This document shows, piece by piece, positions 2,823 through 57,799 of a DNA stretch of 64,000 bases; positions within the stretch are counted from its first letter, which is position 1; each line of letters opens with the position of its first letter. The stretch comes from Candidatus Thorarchaeota archaeon (lineage in GTDB: Archaea > Asgardarchaeota > Thorarchaeia > Thorarchaeales > Thorarchaeaceae), in the NCBI GenBank assembly GCA_048882325.1, contig JBHLRS010000009.1, positions 4,207-68,206 on the forward strand. The letters run 5' to 3'. The translations under genes and the position numbers were made by a program. The notes below the pieces were generated by a model. It was not told the DNA's origin, did not search any database, and saw nothing but the letters and a program-made list of their open reading frames with translations.

Positions 2823-2831
2823 CTATCAGTT

Positions 2832-5860: not shown

Positions 5861-6145
5861 CTAAGATTGGACTAGAGCACGTATCCTTTCAACTCTGACT
5901 CTCAGTTCTTTAAGAGGATCTAAAAATGCTTGACGAGTTTCACTGCTTGTTCTGATGAGGTATGCCTTGAGATTTCCCACATCTCCCTTCATCTTGTCTA
6001 ACATCGGACTACGCTCATCTAATAATCTTAGAGTGTTGGTGAGCGCGATTTGAAATTTCTCATGTTCTTGAGAGATGTTAACACGGGTTTGATCTATGAG
6101 CTCAAGAAGTGAAGTTATCTCAGCAAGTATCTCCTCATTGTTCAT
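5861..6145 (-). CDS. Hypothetical 94-aa helical coiled-coil protein.
   Basis: The ORF has a heptad-like charged/hydrophobic pattern. It overlaps the upstream gene's stop by 4 nt, which suggests co-translation. Confidence 0.35.
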   Translation of the reverse strand: MNNEEILAEITSLLELIDQTRVNISQEHEKFQIALTNTLRLLDERSPMLDKMKGDVGNLKAYLIRTSSETRQAFLDPLKELRVRVERIRALVQS

Positions 6146-6861
6146 TCAGAGAGGTCCTCCTCTGCAACTATTCGAACAACAGTGCCATCTCGAATCCAAG
6201 TTCTTGCATTAGCTGCAGGAATCATAGCAATGTCCTCTTTCTTGAACGGTCCATATGTTTTCTCATCCAGACCCAAGAAGGCATCACTAATTGTGCGTAG
6301 AAAGCGTACGGTCACATACTCGACTTCATCATCTTCAAGGAAATCTTCAGATGTGTCATCACTAGGTTTCCTCTTTGGTTTGGAGCCGGCCAATGAGTCC
6401 TTGACAAACTCTGTGTGTCCATCAAAAGCTCGTTGTACTCTATTGTATAATTCCTCCTCTGCGAGTGTCATGTCACCCCTTGGTCGGTGTCCTGAGAGAA
6501 TCGCTTTGATGATCTTCTGTCTTCGCATGTTCAACAAGTCTTCTATCATAAACTCTAGATTGAGTGCTTCCTGTGTCAGAATGTCAGCTTGGACTCGTTT
6601 GTCAGCATCAGTGGATGCGAGAGACAGTCGAACACTAGAGAGATAGGCAATCATCTTACTGAGACGAAGATCACCCAGGTCCTGCAGACCTTCATTATCA
6701 ATTTCCATCTCCCATGCAGATTTGATGTCATCATATCCCAGGTCACTCAATGATAGCAACTCCTTTGCATAGTACGAACATCGCTGCAGCAGTTGGTAGG
6801 TCCACAGACTCTCCATGGTATGGTCCAAAGGATTCGTCACCCATTCTAAAACGCGGAACAC
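6142..6861 (-). CDS. Hypothetical protein downstream of priS, possibly a GINS subunit (Gins15/Gins51-like).
   Basis: Its position in a PCNA-PriS-X arrangement matches the PCNA-PriS-Gins15 cluster known from other archaea. The predicted sequence is largely helical with an acidic C-terminus. No diagnostic motif was seen. The true start may be the internal Met (MESLW, about 6816). Confidence 0.3.
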   Translation of the reverse strand: MFRVLEWVTNPLDHTMESLWTYQLLQRCSYYAKELLSLSDLGYDDIKSAWEMEIDNEGLQDLGDLRLSKMIAYLSSVRLSLASTDADKRVQADILTQEALNLEFMIEDLLNMRRQKIIKAILSGHRPRGDMTLAEEELYNRVQRAFDGHTEFVKDSLAGSKPKRKPSDDTSEDFLEDDEVEYVTVRFLRTISDAFLGLDEKTYGPFKKEDIAMIPAANARTWIRDGTVVRIVAEEDLSE

Positions 6862-8131
6862 CAGGAGATTTGTGAAGGAATTTTACCTTCATCCTACCTT
6901 CATTAAAAGCAATTGCATCACAAAAAGGATCAAAGTCATCAAGCACATCTCGAGTGATTTCCTTGACGATAAAGCCTGTCTTTCCATTCAAGCTCCCTAT
7001 CAGACGAATGACTCTATGGATATCATGAGTGACAGGACGGTCTATCTCTCCCCCATATACCTCAGCTGCTCTTTCCGCGATCTCCTGCCATGATTTCAGA
7101 CCGATATCCTTTGCTTCCTTGCTCAGTACTGGTGGATCTCTCAATAGTCCATCTATAGCTGCTACTTTTCCCTTTCTGAGCGGTTTCACCCATCTTTCGG
7201 AGCCCTCATATGAATCGATGTTTCGTATGAGCTCAATCATGGCATCAGCGGTTTTACCAGCCCAGCCTGGAAAGGACCGATCTAATATCCGATTCACTCT
7301 ACCTTGAGAAACAATGACTTTCTCAGTATTTAGACCAAGACCCATGATGTAATGTACAATCTGAATGCGACTACTTGAATCCAGTGAAAAGACCTTGGGG
7401 TCGCGAACACGAAGGTGATACCCCCTATGACCACTATAATTGAGTTGGACCGTTTCCGGATCAAATCCAAAGTCATTCACTATGAAGTCATCATAGAGCT
7501 TCACTGTATGCTTCTTCGCTTCTGCTAAACACTTCTCACATACCCACTTTCTTATACTGAAGCTCTTGCCATCACAATCAGGACAAGTCTCAGGATGTAT
7601 ACCTGTTCCAGTCTTATGGCAACCCTCCGTATTGCATCTCCATGCATCATGGTCCTTAGCGCACTTCAGGTCAAGATGGTCTGCATCAATATCAAAGACA
7701 AGTTCAGCTCCAAACCACTCTTTCTCATCCATGTGACGGGCCACAGGAACTCTGTAAAAGGCTGCTGAGTGATAGATACTATGAGGGGCAACAGCTGCGA
7801 GATCTCGTACAAGTTCATCCCTGTTCAGATATCCAACATGTCTCCTCCAGGTTGTTGTCTGGATATCGCTTGAACCACATTTTGGGCACTCTTTGATGCT
7901 TGCGAACGAAGTTCCTGATTCTCCGCATCCAGTCGTGATGTCACGTCCAGACTCATCTCGACCCTTTCTCTTAGGACAGAACCAGTTGTGTTCCCAGCTC
8001 TGGATACCGAACTCTCGATTATGTACCTTATCTGGAACATCAATGGTTTCAGGATTTGCCTTGTAATGTTCATGGAACATGAATCGTAGTTTCAAAACAG
8101 TGCTTGTGAAACCTTGATTCTGATTCGGCAT
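6743..8131 (-). CDS. priS: DNA primase small catalytic subunit PriS.
   Basis: Catalytic AEP motif ELVFDIDADH. A Cys-rich zinc-binding insertion (CNTEGCHKTGTGIHPETCPDCDG...CEKC). Typical length. Lies adjacent to PCNA. Confidence 0.8.
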   Translation of the reverse strand: MPNQNQGFTSTVLKLRFMFHEHYKANPETIDVPDKVHNREFGIQSWEHNWFCPKRKGRDESGRDITTGCGESGTSFASIKECPKCGSSDIQTTTWRRHVGYLNRDELVRDLAAVAPHSIYHSAAFYRVPVARHMDEKEWFGAELVFDIDADHLDLKCAKDHDAWRCNTEGCHKTGTGIHPETCPDCDGKSFSIRKWVCEKCLAEAKKHTVKLYDDFIVNDFGFDPETVQLNYSGHRGYHLRVRDPKVFSLDSSSRIQIVHYIMGLGLNTEKVIVSQGRVNRILDRSFPGWAGKTADAMIELIRNIDSYEGSERWVKPLRKGKVAAIDGLLRDPPVLSKEAKDIGLKSWQEIAERAAEVYGGEIDRPVTHDIHRVIRLIGSLNGKTGFIVKEITRDVLDDFDPFCDAIAFNEGRMKVKFLHKSPGVPRFRMGDESFGPYHGESVDLPTAAAMFVLCKGVAIIE

Positions 8132-8182
8132 GCACTAGAACTCCATCAATTGGTACCGATGTATTCGGGACCTCTTGTCTTT

Positions 8183-8932
8183 CTACCTACGTTCTACACG
8201 TGGTGCTAGAACGAAGCTTATGCTTCCAGCCTCTGCTATTGGGAATTCTAGCATCATTGGTTTACTGGAAGTGAATTGAAGCATTAAGCTGTCACTAGCG
8301 ATTGCTTTTGAAATCTCCGTCAAATAATTCAATGCATACATGGCCATTGCCTTGCCTGACACTTTCAGCTGGAAAAGCGCAGGTGCATCACCTTTCGTTG
8401 TCAGTGCAACATTGGCTTCACCTGTATCACCTTCACCAGCAAAAATCAGCTGTTCAGGCTCTGCGCTGATTTTCACATGACTGGACACAACTCCGATGTC
8501 CTTGATTGCTTGCTTGAATGTGTCAGCCAACAATTCTGCCTTTACATCGAAATCTATACCGGGCTTTTTTGTCTGATCGTCGGGGGGTGTCAGAAGTTGT
8601 AGTTTGAACACTCGATTTGCTTGTCCTAGCATCTTTATTTCGAAACGGTTGTCATCCAAGTTGAACTCAAGATGTTCATCTCCAGCCATTCGTTTACTCA
8701 CCTTGACGAGCTCGTCAATACCCAAGCAGATGTCGTGCTCGCCCTTGCATGAATACTCCTGAAAAATGCCAGAAGGGAGGGTTAAATCAATCATCGCCGC
8801 TTTAGACGAGTCAAGCTGACGTAGTGATATTCCAGATTCAGATACGCGAAAATGCGCCTCTGTGAGTAGAGTTGCTAATGCGTCTACAATTTGTTTCCAT
8901 GTCTTGGTACTGTCGAGAGTCGCGTGAAACAT
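8183..8932 (-). CDS. pcn: DNA polymerase sliding clamp PCNA.
   Basis: 249 aa, the typical PCNA length. Two-domain beta-clamp-like pattern. Genomic context next to priS. Confidence 0.85.
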   Translation of the reverse strand: MFHATLDSTKTWKQIVDALATLLTEAHFRVSESGISLRQLDSSKAAMIDLTLPSGIFQEYSCKGEHDICLGIDELVKVSKRMAGDEHLEFNLDDNRFEIKMLGQANRVFKLQLLTPPDDQTKKPGIDFDVKAELLADTFKQAIKDIGVVSSHVKISAEPEQLIFAGEGDTGEANVALTTKGDAPALFQLKVSGKAMAMYALNYLTEISKAIASDSLMLQFTSSKPMMLEFPIAEAGSISFVLAPRVERR

Positions 8933-9131
8933 GCCGTTATCTCCAACTGTCTATTGATGTGCGAACTAACACTCCTTTCCAAACCCGGATGATGGTCATC
9001 ATCAAAGGAGTCAGTATCGCTCTTTATCTTTGAACAAGATTCTCAAGTTGGATTTCACATTTTAAGTGTACTTCTCAATGGAAATGATGTGCTCTTTATA
9101 GATATGACAGAAAAGAAGACCGTCTGAATAC

Positions 9132-9506
9132 CTACTCACTCATTGTTCGTGTCACTTTTTCTTCTAGATCCTGGACTTCTTTGTAGAGTTCGATGTCCAA
9201 TGAATCGATGTCATGGGAAATTGACGCATTCAGTCTCAGTTCTTTCCCACCGTCAGTTTTCTTCTCGGTCACTTCTCCGATGAACAAGTATTTCTTGCTG
9301 AGTTCAAGGGATCCTTCAACACTGACCTGAATCTTTCCTGCTTTTTTCACATCATCGTCATACACATCTTGGACTACTGCGAGGCCGGGGCTGGCGTCGA
9401 CCACAATCCCCATTATTCGGACTGGACCCGTTGTATCTGCAGATAGGTTTCGTATAGTGGTCAGTTTAGAGGGTTTTCGCCGGGCAAAACTCTTCTCTTC
9501 AGTCAT
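9132..9506 (-). CDS. Hypothetical OB-fold-like protein of 124 aa.
   Basis: A beta-rich alternating pattern (VRIMGIVVDASPGLAVVQD) resembles RPA/SSB-type OB folds. It sits between tfs and pcn. Confidence 0.35.
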   Translation of the reverse strand: MTEEKSFARRKPSKLTTIRNLSADTTGPVRIMGIVVDASPGLAVVQDVYDDDVKKAGKIQVSVEGSLELSKKYLFIGEVTEKKTDGGKELRLNASISHDIDSLDIELYKEVQDLEEKVTRTMSE

Positions 9507-9583
9507 AGTCGCAGCTCCAAAATTCTCTTAGCAGAATTGGACAAGTAGGTTGCAACATCTTGAGGGCTATAAATCTGTCAGTC

Positions 9584-9913
9584 TTATCCACCATAATTCC
9601 GCCAAGTGTGCTTGCATTTGGTGCATCTATAGAACTCTGTTGCACCTTCATCTCCTCTTCTTGTCTGGAGTGTCCAATAGTAGGCTTCTGTATTGTCACA
9701 CTTCGGACATGAGGCTTTCGTCACAGGCATTGGAATTGAGTCGTCTTCTACCACGATTATTTTGTCACGTGGTGATTTCTCCAAGTTTTGTGAAACTGTC
9801 AGTCTTCCCTTGATACCTTTAGTATGTCCACAGCTTCTGCACTTCAGGACTCTGGAGCCGTCCTCCTCTGTAGTTGGCACCATCATTGCACCGCACTTCT
9901 TGCAGAATTCCAT
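9584..9913 (-). CDS. tfs: Transcription factor S / RNA polymerase subunit M (TFIIS-type zinc ribbon).
   Basis: N-terminal zinc ribbon CKKCG...CRSCG. C-terminal TFIIS-type ribbon CPKCDNTEAYYWTLQTRRGDEGATEFYRCTKCKHTW with the acidic RRGDEG hairpin. Confidence 0.85.
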   Translation of the reverse strand: MEFCKKCGAMMVPTTEEDGSRVLKCRSCGHTKGIKGRLTVSQNLEKSPRDKIIVVEDDSIPMPVTKASCPKCDNTEAYYWTLQTRRGDEGATEFYRCTKCKHTWRNYGG

Positions 9914-9981
9914 GGAACATTCACTTCTCCGCTGCAGCGTTTAGAGTTCAATTAAGCATTACGACAGCGTACATTTGGAAC

Positions 9982-10407
9982 TCAAGGTAACGACTGGATG
10001 TGTTTCTCTAGAAGATACTGAAAAGAGAGAGCTGCAATCTCGCCTTCTTTCTTTCTGTTAGTCGTGAAATCTATGTTTAGTGTTTCGACAAGTGTATCAA
10101 CAAGTTCAGGCACCGTGACCACACCCTTCATCCATAAGTAGGCTATGATGGCTTCATATGCATCAGCTGCTCGGCCTGAGTCGGTTCTTCGGGAAATATG
10201 TCTATAGACTTCAGTGGCGCGTATTGCTCGAGCAAGAACACTATCTCTGACCTTCTCGCCTGTGGCTTGACCAAGGACTCTGGATTTTGCGAGAGAATAA
10301 CAGAGGTTCACTATACCGTCACCAACTTTTGCGAGTCCTTTGTCATTCATGATTTCTTCGACAGATTCGTGTTGGACAAAGGTTTCCCACATGTGACGGG
10401 CCACCAT
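9982..10407 (-). CDS. RNase III-domain protein (mini-RNase III-like, no dsRBD).
   Basis: LAKVGDGIVNL matches the RNase III signature E-x-L-E-x-L-G-D. The later ADAYEAIIAYLWMKG matches the second conserved RNase III segment. 141 aa. Confidence 0.5.
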   Translation of the reverse strand: MVARHMWETFVQHESVEEIMNDKGLAKVGDGIVNLCYSLAKSRVLGQATGEKVRDSVLARAIRATEVYRHISRRTDSGRAADAYEAIIAYLWMKGVVTVPELVDTLVETLNIDFTTNRKKEGEIAALSFQYLLEKHIQSLP

Positions 10408-10415
10408 GAGTCAGT

Positions 10416-10706
10416 TTAGTCAATATTGTGATCTGAAACAGCTTGTTTGAATTTCTTTCGAAACTCTTCAGTCCTAGCAAGCATCTTCTCAAGAGCCTCT
10501 CTCAGGACAACATTAGCCTGTCGCCTCTTTGTCCTCAGGGTCAAGATTGGACTAGCTAGAAGTGGGTGCTCGATGTTGTATCCAGCAAACTCCACTGAAG
10601 GTTCCTCCAAGAGTGTCTTTCGAAGCAAATTGGGAAAGGAGTGTCCCTCTCCACCAATCTCAAACTTGATTTCGAGTCTCTCATGTTCAATGGTTCTTGG
10701 CTTCAC
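10416..10706 (-). CDS. rpoL: DNA-directed RNA polymerase subunit L (Rpb11 homolog).
   Basis: The EGHSFPNLLRKTLLEEPSVEFAGYNIEHPLL pattern matches the conserved RpoL core. 96 aa. Context with csl4. Confidence 0.75.
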   Translation of the reverse strand: MKPRTIEHERLEIKFEIGGEGHSFPNLLRKTLLEEPSVEFAGYNIEHPLLASPILTLRTKRRQANVVLREALEKMLARTEEFRKKFKQAVSDHNID

Positions 10707-10708
10707 AT

Positions 10709-11467
10709 CTATCTTCTCCTGCTTTCTCTACCACGATCACTCCCTCTTCTCCCACGTCTGTCGCCTCCTCGTCCGCGTTGACCATCAAAGCGTCTACCTC
10801 CACGACCACCACGATCGTCTCGGTCGTACTGCCTACGGTCATAGGATCGTCGACGGGGTGCCAGGTCTGGTCGTGCCTCAAGACCAAATCGCTGTCCATA
10901 GTCGTTGGCCACTTCGCGGGTTTCTCGATTCTCACATCGAAGGCAAAACATATTGTTATGTGTTGTGAGGGTCAATGCATTTCCACATCTTGTACAGACT
11001 CCAAACACAACTCCAAGATCAGGACCTACAAGGGTCAGTTGGACAGGAATTTCGTGTGTGTTCAGAGCTGCTGCACGAACAATGTCGTTCTGTTTGAGCA
11101 CATCCTGCATACTCTTCACATATCTTCGGGTCACGTTGCTTATGTGCAGTTCACCAACGAGACCCCTGTGATAATCTTCATCGTTAATTCGTACTATCCT
11201 GACCTCAGCACGCTGGTCAAACACAAGAGTGGCCTCACCCATCAGGATATCTCCCTTCACAGGAAGGGACAGTTTTAATCCACCCTCAGGACTGATGATT
11301 CTGATACTTCGTTCTTTAAGGTCCATATCAACTTGCCCTGGAGCTGCGGCATACACAATACCATCCTTCTCATAAGTACCAAAGCTTGGCATCAGCTCTT
11401 CAATGACGCATAGCTGATCACCGGGTACTACGATATCGCCGCTCTTCACATCTGCCATTCTATTCAC
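10709..11467 (-). CDS. csl4: Exosome RNA-binding cap subunit Csl4 with an unusual RG/RGG-rich C-terminal tail.
   Basis: N-terminal domain (VVPGDQL), an S1-like core and a zinc ribbon CTRCGNAL...CLRCEN. It is followed by about 50 aa of RRRSYDRRQYDRDDRGGRGGRRFDGQRGRGGDRRGRRG. Confidence 0.8.
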   Translation of the reverse strand: MNRMADVKSGDIVVPGDQLCVIEELMPSFGTYEKDGIVYAAAPGQVDMDLKERSIRIISPEGGLKLSLPVKGDILMGEATLVFDQRAEVRIVRINDEDYHRGLVGELHISNVTRRYVKSMQDVLKQNDIVRAAALNTHEIPVQLTLVGPDLGVVFGVCTRCGNALTLTTHNNMFCLRCENRETREVANDYGQRFGLEARPDLAPRRRSYDRRQYDRDDRGGRGGRRFDGQRGRGGDRRGRRGSDRGRESRRR

Positions 11468-12098
11468 GCTCTTTGTATATACGATACAGGTCTACATCCA
11501 CCAAGTGCTTCGGCTTTCTGTGGTGTTCGAACAGCCGACCGATTGGAAACTGAAATGTTTCAAGTTGTGTCACTGTGGCACCTAGTTTCTCAATCTCTTT
11601 GCTCAGGAACGTCCTGTTCTTGTCACCCGCCAGGTGCATGCTGTATATCACTTCAGCAACAGAGATTGCCTTCTTCAGGAATCTAAGGTCAGCACCGCGG
11701 TTTTTCACTCCGAACGGAGGATTACTCACCACTGTATCTACTGGACAACATAGCTGTAGGGAGAAAACATCTCCCAGAACCCAGTCTACGGTGTCATCTA
11801 TTCTGAGCAATCTCGAGTTCTTTTGAGACGCCTTTAAGGCTTTGCTTTGCACATCAATTCCAATCACTCTCCTCGCCCCCAACAGTCCGGCTCCGATCGC
11901 GAAGATTCCATCCCCGCATCCCAGATCGCACACGATTTTATCCGTGATATCCCCATGTTCCATTTGGGCAGCATACAAGACTGTTGCTGCGATTGAGGCT
12001 GGAGTTGGATATTGTTCTAATGACTCACTAAACTCATCTATCCTCTCCATTGATTCAAGTGCGATTTCCAAGTCTCTTAAACGCAAGAACTCCACCAA
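11460..12098 (-). CDS. SAM-dependent N6-adenine/rRNA methyltransferase (METTL5-like, NPPF family).
   Basis: Motif I DLGCGDG and motif IV VVSNPPFG. It is the conserved neighbour of csl4 in archaeal exosome gene clusters. Confidence 0.7.
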   Translation of the reverse strand: MVEFLRLRDLEIALESMERIDEFSESLEQYPTPASIAATVLYAAQMEHGDITDKIVCDLGCGDGIFAIGAGLLGARRVIGIDVQSKALKASQKNSRLLRIDDTVDWVLGDVFSLQLCCPVDTVVSNPPFGVKNRGADLRFLKKAISVAEVIYSMHLAGDKNRTFLSKEIEKLGATVTQLETFQFPIGRLFEHHRKPKHLVDVDLYRIYKERE

Positions 12099-12314
12099 TC
12101 TCAGATTTTGACCAATGAGAATCCCCAGGTCTGTCTTGATGAATTATATTGTTTGTACTAATGACAGCCCCGGGTAACACCCACTCTTATCAGTTCCATA
12201 TGTTCCACAGGTTCCAGTCGAAGTCCACTGGAACTTGCCTCAAGTTCTAATGGAAGTGTTTAAGTTCAAGGTAGCTCTTGTACTTAACATTCTCTGCTGG
12301 GAGTAGATGATAAG
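12099..12314. other. Candidate replication origin: ORB-like repeats plus an AT-rich stretch immediately upstream of orc1/cdc6.
   Basis: Three tandem GTTCCAnnn repeats at 12193-12220 are followed by the dyad GTTCCAGT-n8-ACTGGAAC (12211-12235). That dyad resembles the mini-ORB core TCCAGTGGAAAC. An AT-rich block (tgatgaattatattgtttgtactaatg) lies at about 12140-12170, and a G-tract (ccccgggtaacaccc) is nearby. Confidence 0.35.
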
Positions 12315-13562
12315 TTGGAGAAACCGCTCGATAAATTGTTTGACAAGTTCTTACAGGGTCAGGCTATCTTCAGGGACAGAACAGCTCTGAGACCCACTTA
12401 TGTACCCGATAGTCTTCCTTACAGAGACGACCAGATGAGTAGGATTGGGTCCATTCTAGGGCCCGCGCTCAGAGGTGCTCCACCATCCAATATTCTTTGT
12501 TATGGAAAAACGGGCACTGGTAAGACTGTTGTAGCAAGATATGTATTAGACATGCTTGTGAGCAAGGCTAAGGACAGTGGAATTACCGCTCCATTGACGG
12601 CTTTTGTGAACTGCAGGATAGTAGGCACTAATTACAGAGTCTTGAAGAAATTATGTGACCAGGTTAAAGCAACAATGCCTGATGGATCTGAAGTCCCCTT
12701 CACCGGACTTCCCACAGATGAGATTCGAGAAGTCCTGAAGAACGAACTAGATTCTGATTCAAATATCCTTACAGTGGTGCTTGATGAGGTGGATAGTTTA
12801 TTGAAACGCGATGCTGGACAAGGTAATGATATTCTCTATGGATTGACTAGAATGAATGGAGAGCTGGAAAACAGCAGGATATCAATTATAGGAATAAGCA
12901 ATGATCTGAAATTCAAGGAGATGCTTGATCCTAGGGTTCTGTCAACTTTAGGTGAGGAGGAGGTCATATTCTCGCCTTACAATGCTGTAGAGTTGAAAGG
13001 AATTTTGAATCAAAGGGTTGAACTGGCTTTTAACAAAACAGCTATTGGGGACGAAGGTGTGATTAATTTGGTAGGAGCTCTGGCTGCACAGGAGCATGGA
13101 GATGCACGTAGAGCTCTCGATCTTTTGAGGACTGCAGGGGAGCTGGCTGAGAGAAGAGGAGATAGTACTGTTACTCAAGAACATGTTCGCGAGGCACAGA
13201 AAGTCATTGAACGAGACACAATAACTGAAACAGTGAAAACTCTCCCAATGCAGTCGAAAGCTGTTTTGTTTGCGGTCTATGTCTTGGCTAGTAAAGGTCA
13301 ACGCGACATTTTCACAGGTGAGTGTTATAACATCTATTCGGAGATTGCAAAGGCACTCTCTATAGACACATTGACTCAGAGACGTGTTTCTGATTTGATT
13401 TCTGAATTAGATATGTTGGGGCTGATTAATACTACAGTGATATCCAAGGGGCGATATGGACGGACTAAAAAGATCAAGCTAGCTGTGAGTAAGAAACAGA
13501 TTGGTGTCATCCTAGATGATGACACTCGTCTGAGCAAGGTCGCCCAAGAGATACTTGACTGA
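12315..13562 (+). CDS. cdc6: Orc1/Cdc6 replication initiator (AAA+ domain plus winged helix).
   Basis: Walker A GKTGTGKT, Walker B VVLDEVD and a C-terminal winged-helix region. The ORF-track start is a TTG, so the exact start is uncertain. Confidence 0.9.
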   Translation: MEKPLDKLFDKFLQGQAIFRDRTALRPTYVPDSLPYRDDQMSRIGSILGPALRGAPPSNILCYGKTGTGKTVVARYVLDMLVSKAKDSGITAPLTAFVNCRIVGTNYRVLKKLCDQVKATMPDGSEVPFTGLPTDEIREVLKNELDSDSNILTVVLDEVDSLLKRDAGQGNDILYGLTRMNGELENSRISIIGISNDLKFKEMLDPRVLSTLGEEEVIFSPYNAVELKGILNQRVELAFNKTAIGDEGVINLVGALAAQEHGDARRALDLLRTAGELAERRGDSTVTQEHVREAQKVIERDTITETVKTLPMQSKAVLFAVYVLASKGQRDIFTGECYNIYSEIAKALSIDTLTQRRVSDLISELDMLGLINTTVISKGRYGRTKKIKLAVSKKQIGVILDDDTRLSKVAQEILD

Positions 13563-13578
13563 TGAAACCGAGTCCCGA

Positions 13579-15246
13579 TTATTGCATTGATGAAACATCA
13601 TAGAAGAATCTCACTTCAGGAGCCCCAGTTTGGAGGTTTAGAAGCGTCACAATGCCAGGAGTGGGTACAATACCCTGTTTGCGCATGAAGTCTGTCTGGG
13701 CTTGGAATGTCCCAGAATTGATGATTTGTACTCCCCGATAGTTATCGACTGCGTTGTGGTGACAGTGACCAAAGTGGACGACATCAGGAGGAGTATCAAT
13801 CACCATCCAGTCTCTATGGAGTGGAGCGAGTTCCGTCTTACCACCGTACATGGGAACGAGATGGCGTTTCTTGAGAAGTTCCATCATTGGTTTTGCAGGT
13901 TCGGTATATGAAGCTCCGGGAATGCTGGTCACCAAATCATCCATACTGTCACCATGGGTCAGTAACACATTCACGCCCTCAACAACCACCTGACTCGGAT
14001 CCCCCAACATTGTAATACGGTCTCCGAGATTGTATAGGGACTGTGCAAACTCCTCTGAGATAGGAGGTTTGGGAAGAGCCTGTCTGTTCGCATCGTGATT
14101 GCCAGGGATACAGAATATCTTGATGCTCTTTGGAAGTTTCTTCAACTTGCTTGATAGAAGTTCGTACTGTTCATAGATGCTCTCGATTCTGAGGTCATCT
14201 CTCTGTGTTGGATAGACACTGATCCCATCCACCATATCACCAGCAATGAATAGATATCGTGTCTTTCTTGTAATTTCTTTGTCCTCTGCATCAACATCCC
14301 GACCATTCATCCATCCGATGAACTTGTCAAACTCATCTTCGAGGAATTCCTTGCTTCCACAATGAATATCGGAGATGAACGCAGCATAGACGTCTCGCTT
14401 GGCTCGACCCACTTCTCGAGCAGTTGGGATGTCAGGGAAGATTACATCGTCGGCAATCATCCTCGCATCTTCATCAACAAACCCTGAAATGCAGGTGACC
14501 TCGTCAAGAAGTAAGGAGTTCGCTTTTTCTGATAGCTGTTGTCCCTTCAAGTCTTCTCTTGTGGCAGGGATTATGCAGATTATCGACTCATCTTCGTCTT
14601 CTAGTTCAATGATTACATTGCGTGACTGAGATATACTTCTGTTCTTCACAATTCCAAGAACGGTCTGGGTCGTACGTTTTGTTGTACGTATGCCCTTTTT
14701 GGTCAGTTCCTTTCTCTGTTTTGCAGAATCTTTTCTGAGCTTGGCAACCTGCGGTGAAACTGCACTCTGTGTATCAATTCTACTCATGTATATTCGCTTA
14801 ATCCGATCGAATCGGTCTCTGAAGAGCGCTAGGAAGTCTTCTACGGTTCCCTCAGAGCCTACTTGGTCAGGGTTCTTCTCTATACGATAAATCCAGCCGG
14901 TTTCTTCATCAGAAACAACGATCGGTTCTACTGCTTCACTCAAAACCTGTACAGGTTGAGCAATAGGAATCAATTCCTCTTCCTCGACTATATGGTCAGG
15001 TTTCCTTCCTTCAATCAATGATTCTACGTAGGGACGGGAAAGTACAGAAGGGTGGTTTTCTATCGATTTTGTAATGAGAACTGACTTGACAGTTTCAAGA
15101 GGCGTGTCAAGTAGTAAGATGTATTCTAAGGCTTCAGGTGCCACTTGGAGTCCCGACTCAATCAGCAGTTTGAGTATACTACGTCGGATCGAGGAAGTCA
15201 CAGTGCCACCAACTAGGGTGATACAAGTTCCTTGTTTTAACATCAT
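13579..15246 (-). CDS. DNA polymerase II (PolD) small subunit DP1, a calcineurin-like phosphoesterase.
   Basis: C-terminal MPP motifs GDMVDG, GNHD, THGD and HFGHCHH. The N-terminal domain is typical of archaeal DP1. Confidence 0.85.
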   Translation of the reverse strand: MMLKQGTCITLVGGTVTSSIRRSILKLLIESGLQVAPEALEYILLLDTPLETVKSVLITKSIENHPSVLSRPYVESLIEGRKPDHIVEEEELIPIAQPVQVLSEAVEPIVVSDEETGWIYRIEKNPDQVGSEGTVEDFLALFRDRFDRIKRIYMSRIDTQSAVSPQVAKLRKDSAKQRKELTKKGIRTTKRTTQTVLGIVKNRSISQSRNVIIELEDEDESIICIIPATREDLKGQQLSEKANSLLLDEVTCISGFVDEDARMIADDVIFPDIPTAREVGRAKRDVYAAFISDIHCGSKEFLEDEFDKFIGWMNGRDVDAEDKEITRKTRYLFIAGDMVDGISVYPTQRDDLRIESIYEQYELLSSKLKKLPKSIKIFCIPGNHDANRQALPKPPISEEFAQSLYNLGDRITMLGDPSQVVVEGVNVLLTHGDSMDDLVTSIPGASYTEPAKPMMELLKKRHLVPMYGGKTELAPLHRDWMVIDTPPDVVHFGHCHHNAVDNYRGVQIINSGTFQAQTDFMRKQGIVPTPGIVTLLNLQTGAPEVRFFYDVSSMQ

Positions 15247-17723: not shown

Positions 17724-17840
17724 TGGCGCCGGGGATGAGATTTGAACTCGTGTCCTGTGTCATAATATACACAGAATCTCACGCGCCACAAAGGGCAGCG
17801 GTTTTCGAGACCGCCTCCATAGCCACTAGGAGACCCCGGC
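17724..17840 (-). tRNA. tRNA-Ser (anticodon CGA), class II, with an apparent ~30-nt intron near the T-arm (non-canonical position). CCA is encoded.
   Basis: Hand fold gives acceptor GCCGGGG/CCCCGGC and anticodon stem GCGGT/ACCGC with loop CTCGAAA (U33, anticodon CGA). A long variable arm is present, then the T-loop TTCAAAT and 3' GCCA. Extra nucleotides between the variable arm and the T-stem contain the helix CTGTGTC...GACACAG. Total length is 117 nt. Confidence 0.65.
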
Positions 17841-18007
17841 TCAGTCTGTTTCCATAATTCTGGAGATATAATGTTAATTGTCTGTAATTAGAACCATAAA
17901 TCGAGCGTCAAAATTCACTAAATTTAGAGGTTCTCTCTGATTTTCCTAAAGCCATAATACTCAATACATACAGTGATTCTAAATTCAGAGTTGGAGAGTC
18001 TACGTCA

Positions 18008-18421
18008 ATGTCAGTTGAACAAGTTGAAAAATGGTTGAAGTCGCTCGAAGTGTCTTTCGAGCTGGTGAAGGACATCAACACATTCAAGCTAACATGGGAT
18101 GTTGATGGAACACCATTCGAGATTAGGGTAGCAATTCGTGCTGACAGATGGATTCATGTCGCAGTACTGCTTCTTAAACCAGAGGAGATTCCACAGGAGT
18201 ACAGGGAAGAACTGTATGGTCTTTTACTTCGAGAGAACTGGATGCTTGATGACGTAACTTACTCCATGGACGAAAATGGGAATCTGTACTCTGAGAACGA
18301 TATTCCTGAACTGACAAACCTTGAGAACTTCAAAAGCGAGCTTGACGCTGTCATTTTCGGTCTTGAACGCTTCTTTACGATTGTGTCTAGTCGATTTGGA
18401 ATCGAACCAAGAGGCACATAG
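18008..18421 (+). CDS. Hypothetical protein, possibly with a YbjN-like (T3SS-chaperone-like) fold.
   Basis: 137-aa ORF flanked by tRNA genes. Only weak pattern-level resemblance was seen. Confidence 0.35.
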   Translation: MSVEQVEKWLKSLEVSFELVKDINTFKLTWDVDGTPFEIRVAIRADRWIHVAVLLLKPEEIPQEYREELYGLLLRENWMLDDVTYSMDENGNLYSENDIPELTNLENFKSELDAVIFGLERFFTIVSSRFGIEPRGT

Positions 18422-18494
18422 TTCGTGATCAGAAAGTGAGAAGAGAGTATAGTGAAACGCGAAAATAACTAGATAATGAGGCTTACTGAGAAAG

Positions 18495-18611
18495 TGGTGC
18501 GGAGGGCGAGATTCGAACTCGCGGACTTCTACAAGATTACCCCGGTGCCGCAAGCGCGACTCCGTCAGGATCCTAAGTCCTGCGCCTTTAACCTGGCTTG
18601 GCTACCTCCGC
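18495..18611 (-). tRNA. tRNA-Leu (anticodon TAG), class II, with an oversized variable/T-arm region suggesting a ~28-30-nt intron. CCA is encoded.
   Basis: Acceptor GCGGAGG/CCTCCGC. Anticodon stem CAGGA/TCCTG with loop CTTAGGA. T-arm GCGAG-TTCGAAT-CTCGC. There are 43 nt between the anticodon stem and the T-stem, against an expected ~15. Total length is 117 nt. Confidence 0.65.
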
Positions 18612-18972: not shown

Positions 18973-19626
18973 ATGTCCTCAAAAAGTAGACAAGCAGCGG
19001 CAAGGACCAGGGATAAGTGGCGAGAGAAGATCTGGTATCAGATCCTTGCTCCGGACTATTTCGAAAACAAAGATATAGGCAAGACGCCAGCAGTCGCTCC
19101 TGAGCAGCTGATTGGAAGAACTGTTCAGCCTACATTGTATGATATAACTGGGGACTTCGATCGGATACATGTTAAACTTCGATTTAAAATAATGGAAGTT
19201 GCAGGACAACAAGCAAAGACTGTGTTCTATGGACATGAATGGAGTTCTGATTACCTCAGAGGACTAGTTCGAAGAGGAACTTCTAGGATTGACTGGATTG
19301 GCCCGATTCTGACCAAGGACGACTATTTGATGCGCATATCAGTCATTGTCTTCACAACCACCCGTGCGAAGACAAGCCAGGAACATGCAGTCAGAAGAGC
19401 AACAGAGAAGGTCATTCGTGCACATGCAAAGAAGCATGTCTTTGATGAGCTTGTTCAGAAAGTGATTCTCGGCGATCTTGCTTCAGAGGTACACGAAGAG
19501 GTCAAGAAGATTATCCCAATTCGTGAGTGTGAGATTAGAAAAAGCAAGGTACTGAAGGGACCTGAGGAAGTCAAAATCAGAAGAGCTAGACTTCGCAGAG
19601 GCACTGAGAAAGAAAAGGAAACCTAG
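18973..19626 (+). CDS. rps3ae: Ribosomal protein S3Ae (eS1).
   Basis: Conserved blocks KWREKIWY..IxAP, GRTVQPTLYDITGDF and FYGHEWSSDYLRGLVRRG. Confidence 0.85.
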   Translation: MSSKSRQAAARTRDKWREKIWYQILAPDYFENKDIGKTPAVAPEQLIGRTVQPTLYDITGDFDRIHVKLRFKIMEVAGQQAKTVFYGHEWSSDYLRGLVRRGTSRIDWIGPILTKDDYLMRISVIVFTTTRAKTSQEHAVRRATEKVIRAHAKKHVFDELVQKVILGDLASEVHEEVKKIIPIRECEIRKSKVLKGPEEVKIRRARLRRGTEKEKET

Positions 19627-29336: not shown

Positions 29337-30851
29337 CTATTTGTCAGATTTCTTCACAGCATCGGACAGGCTTTTGATTATACCAGTTGGTTCAAATTTC
29401 CGCTGACGTATTTTGACAAATGTGGGAACTGCTACCGTTTCGCCAACAAAAAGCGATTCACCAATTTCAAGAGTAGTGATCGAGTCCAATGAAGAGCGAT
29501 CGATACCCTCACTTGACTTACCAATATGGTCCAGATCGTATGGATTTGTGCATCTGAAGATGGCTTGATTGCTACATTGACTTAGAACTGTCGTGGAGAG
29601 TTTCACCGGTCTTTGAGAGATTAAGCAGAGAAGTGCGTAGAACTTTCTACCTTCTCGTGCAATTGTTTCAATACGACTCTTTGGTAAGGCGAGCTCGTGT
29701 CGGCTCTCAGGACAAAACTGGTGAGCCTCCTCAAGAACTAGTAAGAACGGTGGAATCTGCTCACGTCGCCTTAGATGGAGAAGTTCACTAGCCAAGTGGG
29801 AAACGATGATTTGCTTCTTCTTAAGACTAATAAAATCGCTTAGGTCAATCAAGGTGATTTTCCCTGGCCTCACTACTGTATTGATGTTTGGAACAGCCTC
29901 TTTCCCGAAAAGTCCGGTTTCATCAAGATTGATCAACCAGCCAGAAAGTGCCTCACGTGTGTTCTTGCTGATTTTTTCATCACTCTGGACATACTCTACA
30001 ACATCTGCTAACGTGTATCCCTCTCTCAGTGAGCTCTTCATCTCTGACACAACTCTGCGCAAGTCTCTGACTTGAATTGAACTCATGTCTGATACAAGAG
30101 ACCCTATCGCTTCTGCAGAAAGCGTTTGGACAGGTATCTGAAAATGTGAACCTCTGATATGCTCAATCTCAAATTGTCCTTTCGGTAATCCAAGGGCTTC
30201 AGGAGTGATATCCTGCAGATATGTGTATTCACCATGTACATCTACGACAACCACCGAAAGTCGACCTCTTTCCTTAAGCCGGGAGAGTAGCTCCTCCAGA
30301 AGAACTGACACAAAATAGGACTTGCCAGCACCGCTCATTGCTAGTATTGCTAGATGTTTGGAAAGTAAACGGTCAAGTGATGGGGCAAACTCCAGATTTT
30401 GATATGCTAACCGACCAAGATGAAGACCTTTTTCCAAGTCTAGTTTCAGAAAGGAGGCAAGAATATCTTCGTCAACTCTTCTAACAACAGCTCCTGGAGA
30501 CACTGCAAAGTACGGTCGAACGGTTCGACCTTCACTCCATAGACCCAAAACCCTTGCCATAGCAATTGTGTACTGCCATCGGTCTGTTGGAAAGATCGAT
30601 CGCAGTGGTTCGCCCCTTGATTGGTATTCGCGAACTGCTTCTGCATGTTGGTAATATCGGTTTGTACGTATTAAATCTTGAACCCTCGCTATCACTGTAC
30701 CTGCATCAGTGACAACTGAAATGAATTCCCCACGGCGTGCAACAATTTCTTTAGGTCCACCTTCGAGCACAAATGAAAATTCCATTACACTTGGACCAGC
30801 ATCAGTTGAAACAACGGTTCCAAGTCGTGTGGTTGATGAAAATTCAGCCAT
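29337..30851 (-). CDS. herA: HerA-type hexameric DNA translocase/helicase (HAS-barrel plus FtsK/HerA ATPase).
   Basis: Walker A AILAMSGAGKSYFV. Walker B region LLVLEEAHQF. It is paired with nurA. Confidence 0.8.
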   Translation of the reverse strand: MAEFSSTTRLGTVVSTDAGPSVMEFSFVLEGGPKEIVARRGEFISVVTDAGTVIARVQDLIRTNRYYQHAEAVREYQSRGEPLRSIFPTDRWQYTIAMARVLGLWSEGRTVRPYFAVSPGAVVRRVDEDILASFLKLDLEKGLHLGRLAYQNLEFAPSLDRLLSKHLAILAMSGAGKSYFVSVLLEELLSRLKERGRLSVVVVDVHGEYTYLQDITPEALGLPKGQFEIEHIRGSHFQIPVQTLSAEAIGSLVSDMSSIQVRDLRRVVSEMKSSLREGYTLADVVEYVQSDEKISKNTREALSGWLINLDETGLFGKEAVPNINTVVRPGKITLIDLSDFISLKKKQIIVSHLASELLHLRRREQIPPFLLVLEEAHQFCPESRHELALPKSRIETIAREGRKFYALLCLISQRPVKLSTTVLSQCSNQAIFRCTNPYDLDHIGKSSEGIDRSSLDSITTLEIGESLFVGETVAVPTFVKIRQRKFEPTGIIKSLSDAVKKSDK

Positions 30852-30854
30852 TTG

Positions 30855-32018
30855 TTAGCCTCCAAAAGGATTTCTTGAACGTCTTTTCTCAAGTGTCAAA
30901 TAGGTGAGCCCAGATAAAGCCATGAGACGGTCGATGATTAATCGTGTTTCATTGGTAGTAATCTTTGCCCTTGCATCAGCCTCAAGAATTGGAGTAGGCA
31001 CTCCGTACTCAGGATGCTGTGAAGCTAAGGGGAGTATCGCAGAAAGAGCTTTATCCAGTTTGTCTGTGACTGCATCATCGTCCTCAGCTGAAAGATACTC
31101 CACTCTTATTGGTAAATCATCTCTTGCAGTCTTCAGATATGTGACCCAGATTGATGATGCCCAGGCAGACAAATCATCACTCGGAGAATTTGTATTAAGA
31201 ACAAGCTCTGATGAGTATCGAAATGCAAAGGACCTTTCTCCTTCCTCCAAGAATGTATCAAGGAGATCACAGTCTCGAGATATTTTGAGTAACCATCTAT
31301 AGTCAACTCCTTGCATCATTTCGAAGATTTCTGGTTTTCGAACAATGTGAGGAAGAATTTCACCCATTATCGTAGCTACACGTGTTGATCTACTATCTTT
31401 GACAATACCGATCAACGTTGTACCTTTCTTCCGGGCTTTGTGATAGAGTTGTTTGTAAAGAGATAGAACCTCTTGGAATTTCTCATATACAATAGAACCG
31501 GTTTGGGGACGGTCTCGAGGGTGATAGAATAAGGATCCATCCAATAGTATCAAATCCGTGTGATACTCTTCAAGAACTGATAGTGTGACTCTGAGTTCTG
31601 CTGCAATTCGTTCTAGTGATGCAAACTGGTCCAATTCAATACTAGACAATGTTAACATTAGTGGACTTATTTTTGGTTCAGGAAATGCATCAGGATAGAA
31701 ATCAACAATTGGACCATCTTCTGGTCCAAATTGGAAAATAACAGCAACCCCCCGCGTCAAGACCAAGTCCATCGATCTAAATCGTTTTCTGACCAAACCC
31801 CCATCAATCCCCGCAATTCTGAGACCTGATAGATTTGTAGGTTCTATCTTCGTGTAGAACTGTTTGTCAACAATATTCGACGCAACCGCTGGGAATTTGC
31901 CTAGGTCAATTTTACTTCTGACATTTCTGAGGACATCGCCAAAGCGTTCTCTTGTCACCTCGATATGCTCAATCTCCTCAACCAATTTTGATAGTAACTT
32001 ATCGAGGTTTCTTTCCAC
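30855..32018 (-). CDS. nurA: NurA 5'-3' nuclease.
   Basis: The catalytic N-terminal motif IAGIDGGLV and the later LLDGSLFY. Partnered with herA. The nurA start overlaps the pyrG stop. Confidence 0.75.
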   Translation of the reverse strand: MERNLDKLLSKLVEEIEHIEVTRERFGDVLRNVRSKIDLGKFPAVASNIVDKQFYTKIEPTNLSGLRIAGIDGGLVRKRFRSMDLVLTRGVAVIFQFGPEDGPIVDFYPDAFPEPKISPLMLTLSSIELDQFASLERIAAELRVTLSVLEEYHTDLILLDGSLFYHPRDRPQTGSIVYEKFQEVLSLYKQLYHKARKKGTTLIGIVKDSRSTRVATIMGEILPHIVRKPEIFEMMQGVDYRWLLKISRDCDLLDTFLEEGERSFAFRYSSELVLNTNSPSDDLSAWASSIWVTYLKTARDDLPIRVEYLSAEDDDAVTDKLDKALSAILPLASQHPEYGVPTPILEADARAKITTNETRLIIDRLMALSGLTYLTLEKRRSRNPFGG

Positions 32019-49466: not shown

Positions 49467-49575
49467 TGGTGCTCCGGCCGGGATTCGAACCCGGGTCGGG
49501 GGATCGAGAGTCCCCCATGCTGGGCCGGACTACAGTCGGTATCATTGTAAGGAATATACAATGCTCTACCGGAGC
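49467..49575 (-). tRNA. tRNA-Glu (anticodon CTC) with a ~33-nt intron in the D-arm region (non-canonical). CCA is encoded.
   Basis: Acceptor GCTCCGG/CCGGAGC. The D-arm 3' part TAGTCCGGCC matches archaeal tRNA-Glu. Anticodon stem GGGGA/TCCCC with loop CTCTCGA. T-arm CCGGG-TTCGAAT-CCCGG. An extra segment after position ~9 contains the hairpin ATTGTA-TATTCCT-TACAAT. Confidence 0.65.
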
Positions 49576-49663
49576 CGTGAATGGATTGCCAGTCCGGAGC
49601 GCGAGAAGGCTCGTTTGGAATTATGCAAATAAGCCTTTCCCCGCAACATGAGGACTAAAGAAT

Positions 49664-57793: not shown

Positions 57794-57799
57794 AAATAG

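Follow-up and report, generated by a model that had tools for sequence, protein, structure and literature searches.

Predicted bulge-helix-bulge introns at positions 53/54 and 43/44 of the tRNA-Ser(CGA) and tRNA-Leu(UAG) genes of a Thorarchaeote

In the analysed window, a stretch of 64,000 nucleotides, two genes very probably encode functional class II tRNAs of a Thorarchaeote, tRNA-Ser(CGA) and tRNA-Leu(UAG), each of which, judged from comparison with orthologues and predicted folding, would carry one short protein-spliced intron of the bulge-helix-bulge (BHB) type, at position 53/54 in the case of tRNA-Ser and at position 43/44 in the case of tRNA-Leu. The original prediction had recognized a tRNA-Ser(CGA) and a tRNA-Leu(TAG) gene of 117 nt each with encoded CCA, intact anticodon arms and one insert of ~30 nt each, and the Rfam tRNA model and the coordinates (Table 1) agree with this assignment. 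The genes had also been described as convergent, which is wrong, as both are located in tandem on the minus strand and are separated by a plus-strand ORF (18008-18421). The position beside glmM and S3Ae is retained, and this synteny marks the Ser and Leu genes across Thorarchaeota as positional orthologues. The S3Ae of the window is 80-95% identical to the S3Ae of Thorarchaeota MAGs and the window shows 99.9% identity to JBHLSF010000006.1 as well as to JBHLRL010000004.1; by these sequence matches its host is a member of the Thorarchaeota (Asgard).

Table 1. Coordinates of the disrupted tRNA genes and of the elements of their predicted introns in the window (nt, position in the tRNA gene; arrows mark predicted cuts; H, central helix; h, outer helix; h', inner helix).
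Feature	Coordinates	Strand	Description
tRNA-Ser(CGA) gene	17724..17840	-	117 nt including encoded CCA; discriminator G73; Rfam tRNA 41.9 bits
Ser exon 1 (nt 1-63)	17778..17840	-	acceptor 5' strand, D-arm, anticodon arm (CGA 17805-17807), variable arm, T-stem 5' strand GTGAG
Ser central helix, exon strand H1	17780..17783	-	CGTG (nt 58-61); 4/4 pairs with CACG; invariant in 9 genomes
Ser 5' bulge	17777-17779	-	AG↓A, directly after H1
Ser predicted intron, Sprinzl 53/54	17747..17777	-	31 nt, ATTCTGTGTATATTATGACACAGGACACGAG; boundary from intron-less orthologues L044, L043 and L059 (86 nt), BHB register and MFE fold
Ser intron hairpin h'	17753..17776	-	TTCTGTGT (17769-17776) / ACACAGGA (17753-17760), loop ATATTATG; 8 bp including one G.U; MFE fold
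Ser central helix, intron strand H2	17749..17752	-	CACG, then 3' splice-site triplet AG↓T (17746-17748)
Ser exon 2	17724..17746	-	T-loop TTCAAAT, T-stem 3' strand CTCAT, acceptor 3' strand CCCCGGC, G73, CCA
tRNA-Leu(TAG) gene	18495..18611	-	117 nt including encoded CCA; discriminator A73; Rfam tRNA 57.0 bits
Leu exon 1 (nt 1-46)	18566..18611	-	acceptor 5' strand, D-arm, complete anticodon arm (TAG 18573-18575)
Leu predicted intron, Sprinzl 43/44 (between G43 and T44)	18537..18565	-	29 nt, ACGGAGTCGCGCTTGCGGCACCGGGGTAA; comparison with intron-less L063; BHB register
Leu full hBHBh' motif	18532..18575	-	same helices in the MFE fold, there with 2-nt bulges
Leu outer helix h	18572-18575 / 18532-18535	-	TAGG / CTTG
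Leu central helix H	18568-18571 / 18539-18542	-	ATCC / GGGT
Leu bulges	18565-18567 and 18536-18538	-	TG↓A and AA↓T
Leu inner helix h'	18562-18564 / 18543-18545	-	CGG / CCG, capped by hairpin GTCGC-GCTT-GCGGC
Leu exon 2	18495..18536	-	variable arm TCTTGTAGAAGTCC, T-arm GCGAG-TTCGAAT-CTCGC, acceptor 3' strand, A73, CCA
tRNA-Glu(CTC) gene	49467..49575	-	109 nt; predicted 31-nt intron at 10/11 (49535-49565)

The position of the inserts is defined by orthologues that are devoid of them. Among the Ser(CGA) and Leu(TAG) orthologues of 60+ Thorarchaeota genomes, 31 Leu(TAG) genes (88 nt) and nine Ser(CGA) genes (84-86 nt) are intron-less, and the intron boundaries of both window genes coincide exactly with these. 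In the case of tRNA-Leu, nt 1-46 are 100% identical to the 5' end of six intron-less genes (L042, L044, L045, L035, L023 and L063), and a single T-loop base distinguishes the spliced product from the L063 gene (intron-less, 88 nt); in the case of tRNA-Ser the exons are near-identical, with nt 1-50 identical to the orthologues in L001 and L037. The Ser intron is consequently placed after G53, where the T-stem 5' strand gives way to the T-loop, while the Leu intron is located between anticodon stem and variable arm and is followed by a normal variable region of 14 nt. The assumption that both inserts lie between variable arm and T-stem thus does not hold, as the T-stem 5' strand lies upstream of the Ser insert and the variable arm downstream of the Leu insert, and splicing of tRNA-Ser near positions 56-59, as had been proposed, gives way to 53/54 according to the orthologue boundaries; that the T-stem GTGAG/CTCAT is formed across the Ser insert had been seen correctly. 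Predicted splice sites are G63↓A64 and G94↓T95 in tRNA-Ser and G46↓A47 and A75↓T76 in tRNA-Leu, with predicted joined junctions GCGTGAG↓TTCAAATC and GGATCCTG↓TCTTGTAG, respectively. In relatives with a Ser 53/54 intron the string CACGAA-TTC mimics the T-stem and misleads alignment to a single reference, and the boundaries were anchored by regular expressions on the exons.

In silico removal of the introns restores perfect class II cloverleafs, so that ARAGORN, which finds nothing in the unspliced genes, calls a tRNA-Ser(cga) of 86 nt and a tRNA-Leu(tag) of 88 nt, and the complete cloverleafs claimed for the two genes are thereby borne out. When all 3464 possible excisions per gene were considered, 11 (Ser) and five (Leu) passed a BHB filter, and of these four per gene were recognized by ARAGORN; among those which passed both, the excisions 63/31 (Ser) and 46/29 (Leu) alone give the length of the intron-less orthologue. 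The register applied (a 4-bp central helix that is half exon and half intron, 3-nt bulges and cleavage after the second bulge base) agrees with the description of such motifs in PMC4090602. It is validated by twelve orthologues whose intron lies at the canonical 37/38 site and which fit it, the central helix being paired 4/4 in nine and 3/4 in three and the outer helix spanning 6 bp in all except one. Upon shuffling of the intron, a 4/4 central helix together with an inner helix of the observed length or longer was obtained in 0/20000 trials for Ser and in a fraction of 0.00085 for Leu. The local folds reach modest thermodynamic z-scores, -2.2 in tRNA-Ser and -1.6 in tRNA-Leu, and the MFE folds reproduce the arrangement of central helix, bulge and inner helix.

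Folding at the exon-intron junctions had been recommended in the original prediction as a check for BHB motifs, and BHB geometry is indeed present at both junctions, in the full hBHBh' form in tRNA-Leu and in a relaxed HBh' form in tRNA-Ser. The Leu intron displays all elements of the strict motif, outer, central and inner helix with both bulges, and its formation would demand that the anticodon and the anticodon-stem 3' strand re-pair with the intron and the variable-arm 5' strand. In tRNA-Ser the central helix (4/4), the 5' bulge and the 8-bp inner helix are found, while the outer helix is missing, with 0-1 of 4 pairs in the window and in all eight relatives, and the 3' site does not lie in a closed bulge. 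One site bulged between central and inner helix, the other adjoining the central helix unclosed and a location outside 37/38 are the features of the relaxed subclass, and the Ser motif is on this structural prediction a relaxed HBh' motif without outer helix. With respect to the hairpin in the Ser insert, quoted before as CTGTGTC/GACACAG, the hairpin exists, but the 7 bp given mix strands and the perfect core comprises the 6 bp CTGTGT/ACACAG.

Insert sequences diverge freely among the Thorarchaeota except where BHB pairing is kept. The Leu 43/44 class extends over 13 genomes, the window included, and has a 4/4 central helix in 11 of these, with just 3/4 pairs in the closest relative L001 and in L043; the helix covaries (ATCC/GGGT, ATCC/GGAT, TCCC/GGGA), as do all six pairs of the inner helix, with eight pairs changed on both sides and 88.5% of the cells paired. 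Its covariation score of 0.592, compared with 0.190 after shuffling, was reached by 0/500 shuffles and slid registers collapse. In the Ser 53/54 class (nine genomes including the window) the central helix is paired 4/4 in 9/9 and all of the six inner-helix pairs counted beside the bulge have changed on both sides, with 92.6% of their cells paired; for the class, 95.6% of the cells are paired, as against 21-48% in slid registers, and the covariation score of 0.397 versus 0.196 for shuffled alignments was matched in 0/500. The alignments underlying these scores were registered on exon boundaries and not on pairing.

These results have to be weighed against the view that the extra bases are kept in the mature tRNA as a long or double variable arm or as an expansion of the T-arm. 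Support for it comes from the generic tRNA covariance model of Rfam, which inserts 41-43 nt into the variable region of both genes above the gathering threshold. Formally this is the very outcome that the original prediction had named as evidence against introns; the placement is an artefact, however, and is outweighed by the BHB motifs and by the orthologues that lack an intron. Normal class II variable arms are already present, GCCCTTTGTGGCGC in tRNA-Ser, separate from the insert, and the arm listed in Table 1 in tRNA-Leu. Neither insert forms a single stem-loop within positions 44-48, as the Ser insert comes after G53, 3' of the true T-stem strand GTGAG, where the Rfam alignment is forced onto a mismatched T-stem, and the Leu insert comes before T44. 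Moreover, intron-less orthologues, identical in their exons for Leu and near-identical for Ser, possess the same variable arm and score higher with Rfam than the window genes (60 versus 57 bits for Leu; 50.3 versus 41.9 bits for Ser). Together with the free divergence of the inserts outside the BHB pairing, this leaves retention of the extra bases very improbable.

Inactivation of the tRNA genes through insertion of a short sequence, for example the scar of a mobile element or what remains of an integration, would be in line with the failure of default ARAGORN to recognize either gene and with presence or absence of the insert varying between related genomes. Such pseudogenes are hardly to be expected, though, with fully intact and conserved exons, with an insert that is kept at the same site in 13 (Leu) and nine (Ser) genomes under compensatory substitutions which preserve the splicing motif, and with conserved synteny with glmM and S3Ae; target-site duplications or terminal repeats were not found beyond the BHB pairing. 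We attach next to no probability to canonical anticodon-loop introns in tRNAs of other identity, although ARAGORN with the option -i calls exactly a tRNA-Arg(GCG) with a 17-nt intron at 17724-17840 and a tRNA-Thr(TGT) with a 34-nt intron at 18495-18611. The intron mode of the program permits only anticodon-loop introns and the solution is hence forced, while in the Rfam alignment and in the orthologues the CGA and TAG anticodon arms are intact and normally placed, the discriminators G73 and A73 match Ser and Leu, respectively, as do the long variable arms, and the intron-less orthologues are unambiguously Ser(CGA) and Leu(TAG). Self-splicing group I and group II introns, whose catalytic RNA core comprises hundreds of nucleotides, were ruled out with inserts of 29 and 31 nt and a region without Rfam intron matches. 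Rfam also gave weak snoRNA-like matches near the genes (SNORD99 and snoZ188, E = 0.1-5), which we regard as fortuitous; no C or D box was seen in the introns, which are too short for a C/D-box guide.

Non-canonical BHB introns which need a relaxed-specificity splicing endonuclease, as originally proposed, are thus supported by the cloverleafs obtained on excision, the orthologue boundaries, the BHB geometry and the compensatory changes. By homology, the archaeal splicing endonuclease would cut the pre-tRNA at both sites and leave 2',3'-cyclic phosphate and 5'-OH ends, whereupon a ligase of the RtcB type would join the exons and release the intron, probably as a circle, to yield mature tRNAs of 86 nt (Ser) and 88 nt (Leu). 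The window itself showed no EndA, RtcB or archease in a Pfam scan of 30 of its 64 ORFs and no match in tblastn with the validated EndA of M. jannaschii. A related MAG (L064) encodes an ORF of the EndA family with arginine replacing the catalytic histidine, a replacement which would be as expected for an EndA beta subunit. A report on Asgard archaea, including Thorarchaeota SMTZ1-83, describes an (alpha-beta)2 EndA with an L1 loop together with disrupted tRNA genes (PMC5829648), and the relaxed HBh' form is associated with genomes that encode an (alpha-beta)2-type EndA (PMC4090602). An Asgard EndA of this reported type, which tolerates relaxed motifs, would be the enzyme acting here.

With respect to other tRNA genes, the window contains a third disrupted gene, tRNA-Glu(CTC). 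Its predicted intron shows a central helix CGGT/ACCG, a 5' bulge AG↓A and a hairpin CATTGTA/TACAATG, and splicing in silico would produce a 78-nt cloverleaf with perfect acceptor stem; a 71-nt tRNA-Glu called by ARAGORN was rejected as a mis-structure. No further single-intron tRNA was found when BHB-filtered excisions from all intergenic regions were submitted to ARAGORN. This brute-force search missed tRNA-Glu because of its irregular flanking helices, and the gene was found by hand. Default ARAGORN finds neither the Ser nor the Leu gene in the window, and Rfam scans of the whole window (gathering, E-value) list only Leu and Gly, Ser appearing solely in a search of 1.1 kb. ARAGORN, proposed at the outset as a check, accordingly misses the unspliced genes by default or renames them with -i, and identifies Ser(cga) and Leu(tag) in the spliced forms. 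Standard tools thus mishandle such genes by omission (default ARAGORN), by Arg/Thr calls (intron mode), by loss of Ser to Rfam filters and by truncation of tRNA-Glu, and therefore tRNA complements and codon-capacity estimates of Asgard MAGs will be wrong without BHB-aware tools.

Introns in the Ser(CGA) orthologues are located in the D-loop or at 37/38, 53/54 or 58/59, and eight combinations, including none, occur among 37 genes of species-level genomes. In the closest GTDB representative the Ser intron lies at 58/59, as compared with 53/54 in the window. These alternative sites suggest a rapid intron turnover in Thorarchaeota. In addition, the Ser (53/54) and Glu (10/11) introns of the window, both 31 nt long, are significantly alike, and a Ser-like intron is also present at 53/54 in a tRNA-Leu of another genome. 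Considering this likeness and the variety of Ser sites, tRNA introns might even be actively mobile in Thorarchaeota, a tentative reading that we hold to be possible, though less likely than not. If true, intron gain, loss or transposition would be ongoing among the archaea most closely related to eukaryotes. Two genes in 60+ genomes provide a dense comparative series for intron gain, loss and movement.

In Euryarchaeota, the alpha4 and alpha'2 EndA act on the canonical archaeal intron at 37/38 with its strict hBHBh' motif. The predicted introns share its geometry and the rule for the splice sites, and Ser orthologues in other Thorarchaeota carry such an intron, while in the window genes the central helix derives from the T-stem (Ser) or the anticodon stem (Leu) instead of the anticodon loop and part of the motif is missing in tRNA-Ser. 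Class II tRNAs have long variable arms, and in both of these class II genes the arm is normal-sized, with the insert additional and outside. A close parallel is found in Crenarchaeota, above all in Thermoproteales, whose non-canonical BHB/HBh' introns (Marck & Grosjean 2003; Sugahara et al. 2008; review, PMC4090602) are likewise short, protein-spliced and located outside 37/38, including 53/54, with relaxed HBh' motifs. Alternative positions, multiple introns per gene and presence or absence between related species are shared as well, and the crenarchaeal introns are associated with an (alpha-beta)2 EndA. Unlike there, the introns here belong to a Thorarchaeote, an Asgard archaeon whose genes include PolD, Arf-like GTPases and the like; non-canonical introns had been described as characteristic of a few archaeal lineages, and this host lies beyond the classical examples of Crenarchaeota and Nanoarchaeota. 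While 53/54 is a listed non-canonical intron position (PMC4090602), 43/44 is absent from this list, which ends with 'etc.', and may be a previously unlisted insertion position. Within the Asgard superphylum, disrupted tRNA genes with non-canonical and multiple introns have been reported, in one Thorarchaeote (SMTZ1-83) among others (Kaneta et al. 2018, PMC5829648; PMC11291895), and for Atabeyarchaeia and Freyarchaeia introns are reported in 92-95% of the tRNA genes, often at non-canonical sites (Valentin-Alvarado et al. 2024, PMC11291895). In their available portions, both sources present per-genome counts (a figure, a coordinate table) without Ser 53/54, Leu 43/44, the BHB anatomy or the distribution in Thorarchaeota. 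The introns are very probably real but of a kind already known in Asgard archaea and reveal no new mechanism; with their orthologue-fixed splice sites they add well-resolved examples to the evidence for a broad-specificity tRNA splicing system common to Asgard and TACK archaea.

The two disrupted genes, tRNA-Ser(CGA) and tRNA-Leu(TAG), are each 117 nt long with encoded CCA and intact CGA and TAG anticodon arms, in agreement with the original prediction; their orientation, claimed to be convergent, is tandem on the minus strand. The discriminators G73 (Ser) and A73 (Leu) match expectation for the respective amino acid, and the Rfam tRNA model matches the minus strand at 18498-18611 with 57.0 bits (Leu) and, on searching a short stretch, at 17727-17840 with 41.9 bits (Ser).

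The insert positions are fixed by orthologues. A protein-level search anchored on the neighbouring ribosomal protein S3Ae gene recovered 69 loci, 64 of which belong to Thorarchaeota or 'Promethearchaeota' metagenome-assembled genomes (MAGs; 72-95% amino-acid identity). The glmM-to-tRNA-Ser and tRNA-Leu-to-S3Ae blocks align colinearly in the relatives' loci, and both tRNA genes are positional orthologues across the scan. Intron-less Leu(TAG) orthologues number 31, each 88 nt, with a 5' exon identical to that of the window in six. The intron-less Leu reference L063 reads ...GGATCCTG TCTTGTAGAAGTCC GCGAG... and the window ...GGATCCTG [ACGGAGTCGCGCTTGCGGCACCGGGGTAA] TCTTGTAGAAGTCC GCGAG..., which places a 29-nt insert at G43/T44, 5' of the normal variable arm. 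Equally, comparison of the window (...GGCGCGTGAG [ATTCTGTGTATATTATGACACAGGACACGAG] TTCAAATCTCAT...) with nine intron-less Ser(CGA) orthologues of 84-86 nt places a 31-nt insert at G53/T54. Neither position agrees with the proposed location between variable arm and T-stem, as the Leu insert precedes the variable arm and the Ser insert follows the T-stem 5' strand at 53/54. Once the inserts are excised in silico, ARAGORN recognises both genes as complete, tRNA-Ser(cga) at 86 nt and tRNA-Leu(tag) at 88 nt, and the intron-less orthologues score higher in Rfam (Leu 60.0-60.5 bits, Ser 50.3 bits) than the window genes.

Features with coordinates
Feature	Locus	Positions	Strand
tRNA-Ser(CGA)	window	17724-17840	minus
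Ser 53/54 insert	window	17747-17777	minus
tRNA-Leu(TAG)	window	18495-18611	minus
Leu 43/44 insert	window	18537-18565	minus
Ser-Leu spacer	window	17841-18494	
Spacer ORF, 137 aa	window	18008-18421	plus
Ribosomal protein S3Ae	window	18973-19623	
tRNA-Glu(CTC), 109 nt	window	49467-49575	minus
Predicted Glu intron, 31 nt	window	49535-49565	minus
Replication/repair genes, dense	window	6142-15246; 29337-32018; 56552-61823	
Cdc6/Orc1, two genes	window	12315-13562; 56552-57793	
Arf-family small GTPase	window	33821-34399	
LigT	window	41444-42049	
tRNA-Ser(CGA), 58/59 intron	L001	3805-3918	
tRNA-Leu(TAG), 53/54 intron	L057	3843-3962	plus
tRNA-Leu(TAG), intron near variable arm/T-stem junction	L013	5467-5584	
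tRNA-Leu(TAG), two introns	L029	5466-5604	
tRNA-Leu(TAG), intron in anticodon arm	L060	5353-5466	
EndA-family ORF	L064	about 2780-3384	plus

Splice motifs were assigned by the archaeal rule of a 4-bp central helix H with 3-nt bulges on either side and cleavage after the second bulge base. The rule was validated on 12 Ser orthologues with a canonical 37/38 intron, in which the anticodon stem serves as outer helix and H, CTCG/CGAG, pairs at 4/4 in nine genes and at 3/4 in the other three; it agrees with a review in which the central helix includes the first two anticodon bases (PMC4090602). The Leu junctions can form a full hBHBh' motif, in which TG|A and AA|T are the bulges on either side of the central helix ATCC/GGGT; the outer helix is TAGG/CTTG, in which the anticodon itself takes part, and the inner helix CGG/CCG is capped by the hairpin GTCGC-GCTT-GCGGC. 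For Ser the motif is partial: the central helix CGTG/CACG, the 5' bulge AG|A and the 8-bp inner helix TTCTGTGT/ACACAGGA are present with AG|T as the 3' triplet, but an outer helix is not; the motif is therefore of the relaxed HBh' type. Minimum free energy folding of the local pre-tRNA recovers the Ser H-bulge-h' exactly (z = -2.2) and the same helices with 2-nt bulges for Leu (z = -1.6). In shuffled introns, H paired 4/4 with an inner helix of at least the observed length arose in 0 of 20000 for Ser and in a fraction of 0.00085 for Leu.

The motifs are conserved in alignments registered on exon boundaries, not on pairing. The Leu 43/44 intron occurs in 13 genomes including the window, with lengths of 29-36 nt and otherwise dissimilar sequences. 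In 11 of the 13, H is paired 4/4, and its covariation with the anticodon stem is seen as ATCC/GGGT, ATCC/GGAT and TCCC/GGGA; h' has changed on both sides in all six pairs counted; 88.5% of cells are paired versus 38-60% in slid registers, and the covariation score of 0.592 compares with 0.190 upon shuffling (0/500 as high). In the nine genomes, including the window, with the Ser 53/54 intron, H, being exonic, does not vary, h' shows compensatory changes in 6/6 pairs, and 95.6% of cells are paired versus 21-48% in slid registers.

That the extra bases constitute a long variable arm is excluded, as both tRNAs already possess a normal variable arm, the inserts reside outside it and intron-less orthologues exist. 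Decay into pseudogenes is unlikely with intact exons, preserved synteny and compensatory change that maintains the splice motif. For the Ser and Leu genes, the exons, the intron boundaries, the motif and its conservation are direct observations. By the established archaeal pathway, EndA would cut both sites to leave 2',3'-cyclic phosphate and 5'-OH ends, RtcB would join the exons and the intron would be set free; the Leu pre-tRNA would require an alternative fold with the intron paired to the anticodon-stem 3' strand, while in the Ser pre-tRNA the T-stem 5' strand would pair with the intron. The unclosed Ser 3' site implies an enzyme of relaxed specificity. Pfam searches of 30 of the 64 ORFs and tblastn with Methanocaldococcus jannaschii EndA (sequence confirmed against PDB 1A79, E = 8e-111) found no EndA, RtcB or archease in the window. 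A related MAG (L064) has an EndA-family ORF, without counterpart in the window, some 3 kb upstream of S3Ae. Among PDB entries this ORF matches M. kandleri EndA 5x89 best (1.7e-24), and an Arg aligned at the catalytic His position, as would be predicted for a structural beta subunit, suggests that it may be one.

Annotation tools handle these genes poorly. ARAGORN in default mode, proposed as a check, calls neither gene in the window. Its intron mode (aragorn -i) permits introns in the anticodon loop only, and as an artefact of this it invents such introns and labels the genes Arg(gcg) and Thr(tgt). Whole-window Rfam scans lose tRNA-Ser at the filter stage despite 41.9 bits versus a 29-bit threshold. 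The spacer ORF between the two genes is weakly YbjN-like (borderline at 22.2 bits, cut-off 22); the spacer does not align in most relatives compared and measures 0.65 kb versus 1.6 kb in L001, the closest GTDB representative.

Besides Ser and Leu, tRNA-Glu(CTC) is disrupted, which brings the total to three of the window's four tRNA genes. It has a predicted 10/11 intron (after nt 10) with H CGGT/ACCG, bulge AG|A and hairpin CATTGTA/TACAATG, and predicted splicing yields a perfect 78-nt cloverleaf; Rfam gives a partial match only (26.7 bits), and a 71-nt ARAGORN call at 49471-49541 was rejected for its mismatched acceptor stem. About 26-32 nt upstream of the tRNA-Glu 5' end (within 49576-49610, minus strand), the sequence CGCGCTCCGGACTGG is a repeat of GCTCCGG, which forms the 5' strand of the acceptor stem. 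Both 31 nt long, the introns of Ser and Glu have TGTATATT in common at nearly the same offset and align globally with a score of 5, shuffled sequences giving -6.1 +/- 3.5 (P = 0.002). This likeness, in which the Leu intron has no part, may reflect transposition between tRNA genes.

Introns of the orthologous Ser(CGA) gene occupy four sites in Thorarchaeota, namely the D-loop, 37/38, 53/54 and 58/59, and eight combinations occur if the intron-less state is counted as one. Hand classification of 37 genes (L001-L061) gave nine with none, nine with 37/38 only, six with 53/54 only, three with 37/38 and 53/54, four with 58/59 only, one with D-loop only, two with D-loop and 58/59 and three with 37/38 and 58/59. 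The syntenic L001 gene has its intron at 58/59 in place of 53/54. Leu(TAG) introns vary likewise (Table), and the one in L057 (CGCG AG|A CCTCCTGT...ACAGGAAG CGCG AA|T) resembles Ser 53/54 introns. Together, the Ser-Glu likeness, the four Ser sites and the L001 intron hint at rapid intron turnover, or possibly at intron transposition.

Of the window, 6.4 kb is 99.9% identical to contigs of GCA_048881725.1 and GCA_048882565.1, whose accession series JBHL... also covers many Thorarchaeota MAGs of the scan. Its replication and repair genes also include PolD small subunit, PCNA, primase PriS, GINS51, HerA-NurA, a second Sld5/GINS-family protein and an RFC-like AAA+ protein; RNA-processing genes, besides LigT, are Rrp4-like, archaeal RNase III-like, RNase E/G-DUF402 and TruA.

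Non-canonical BHB/HBh' introns are textbook knowledge for Crenarchaeota, and rapid turnover or transposition of introns has been described for Thermoproteales. Position 53/54 is a listed non-canonical site (PMC4090602); a search of the available literature turned up neither the Leu 43/44 site nor the Thorarchaeota-wide intron pattern. In a survey with Thorarchaeota SMTZ1-83 among its genomes, Asgard archaea were reported to have an (alpha-beta)2 EndA that carries the L1 loop, formerly thought TACK-specific, as well as disrupted tRNA genes (Kaneta et al., 2018, PMC5829648). In Atabeyarchaeia and Freyarchaeia, 92-95% of tRNA genes are stated to contain introns, often at non-canonical sites (Valentin-Alvarado et al., 2024, PMC11291895). 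Non-canonical introns have already been reported for Asgard archaea, and the Ser and Leu introns are well-resolved new examples of them.
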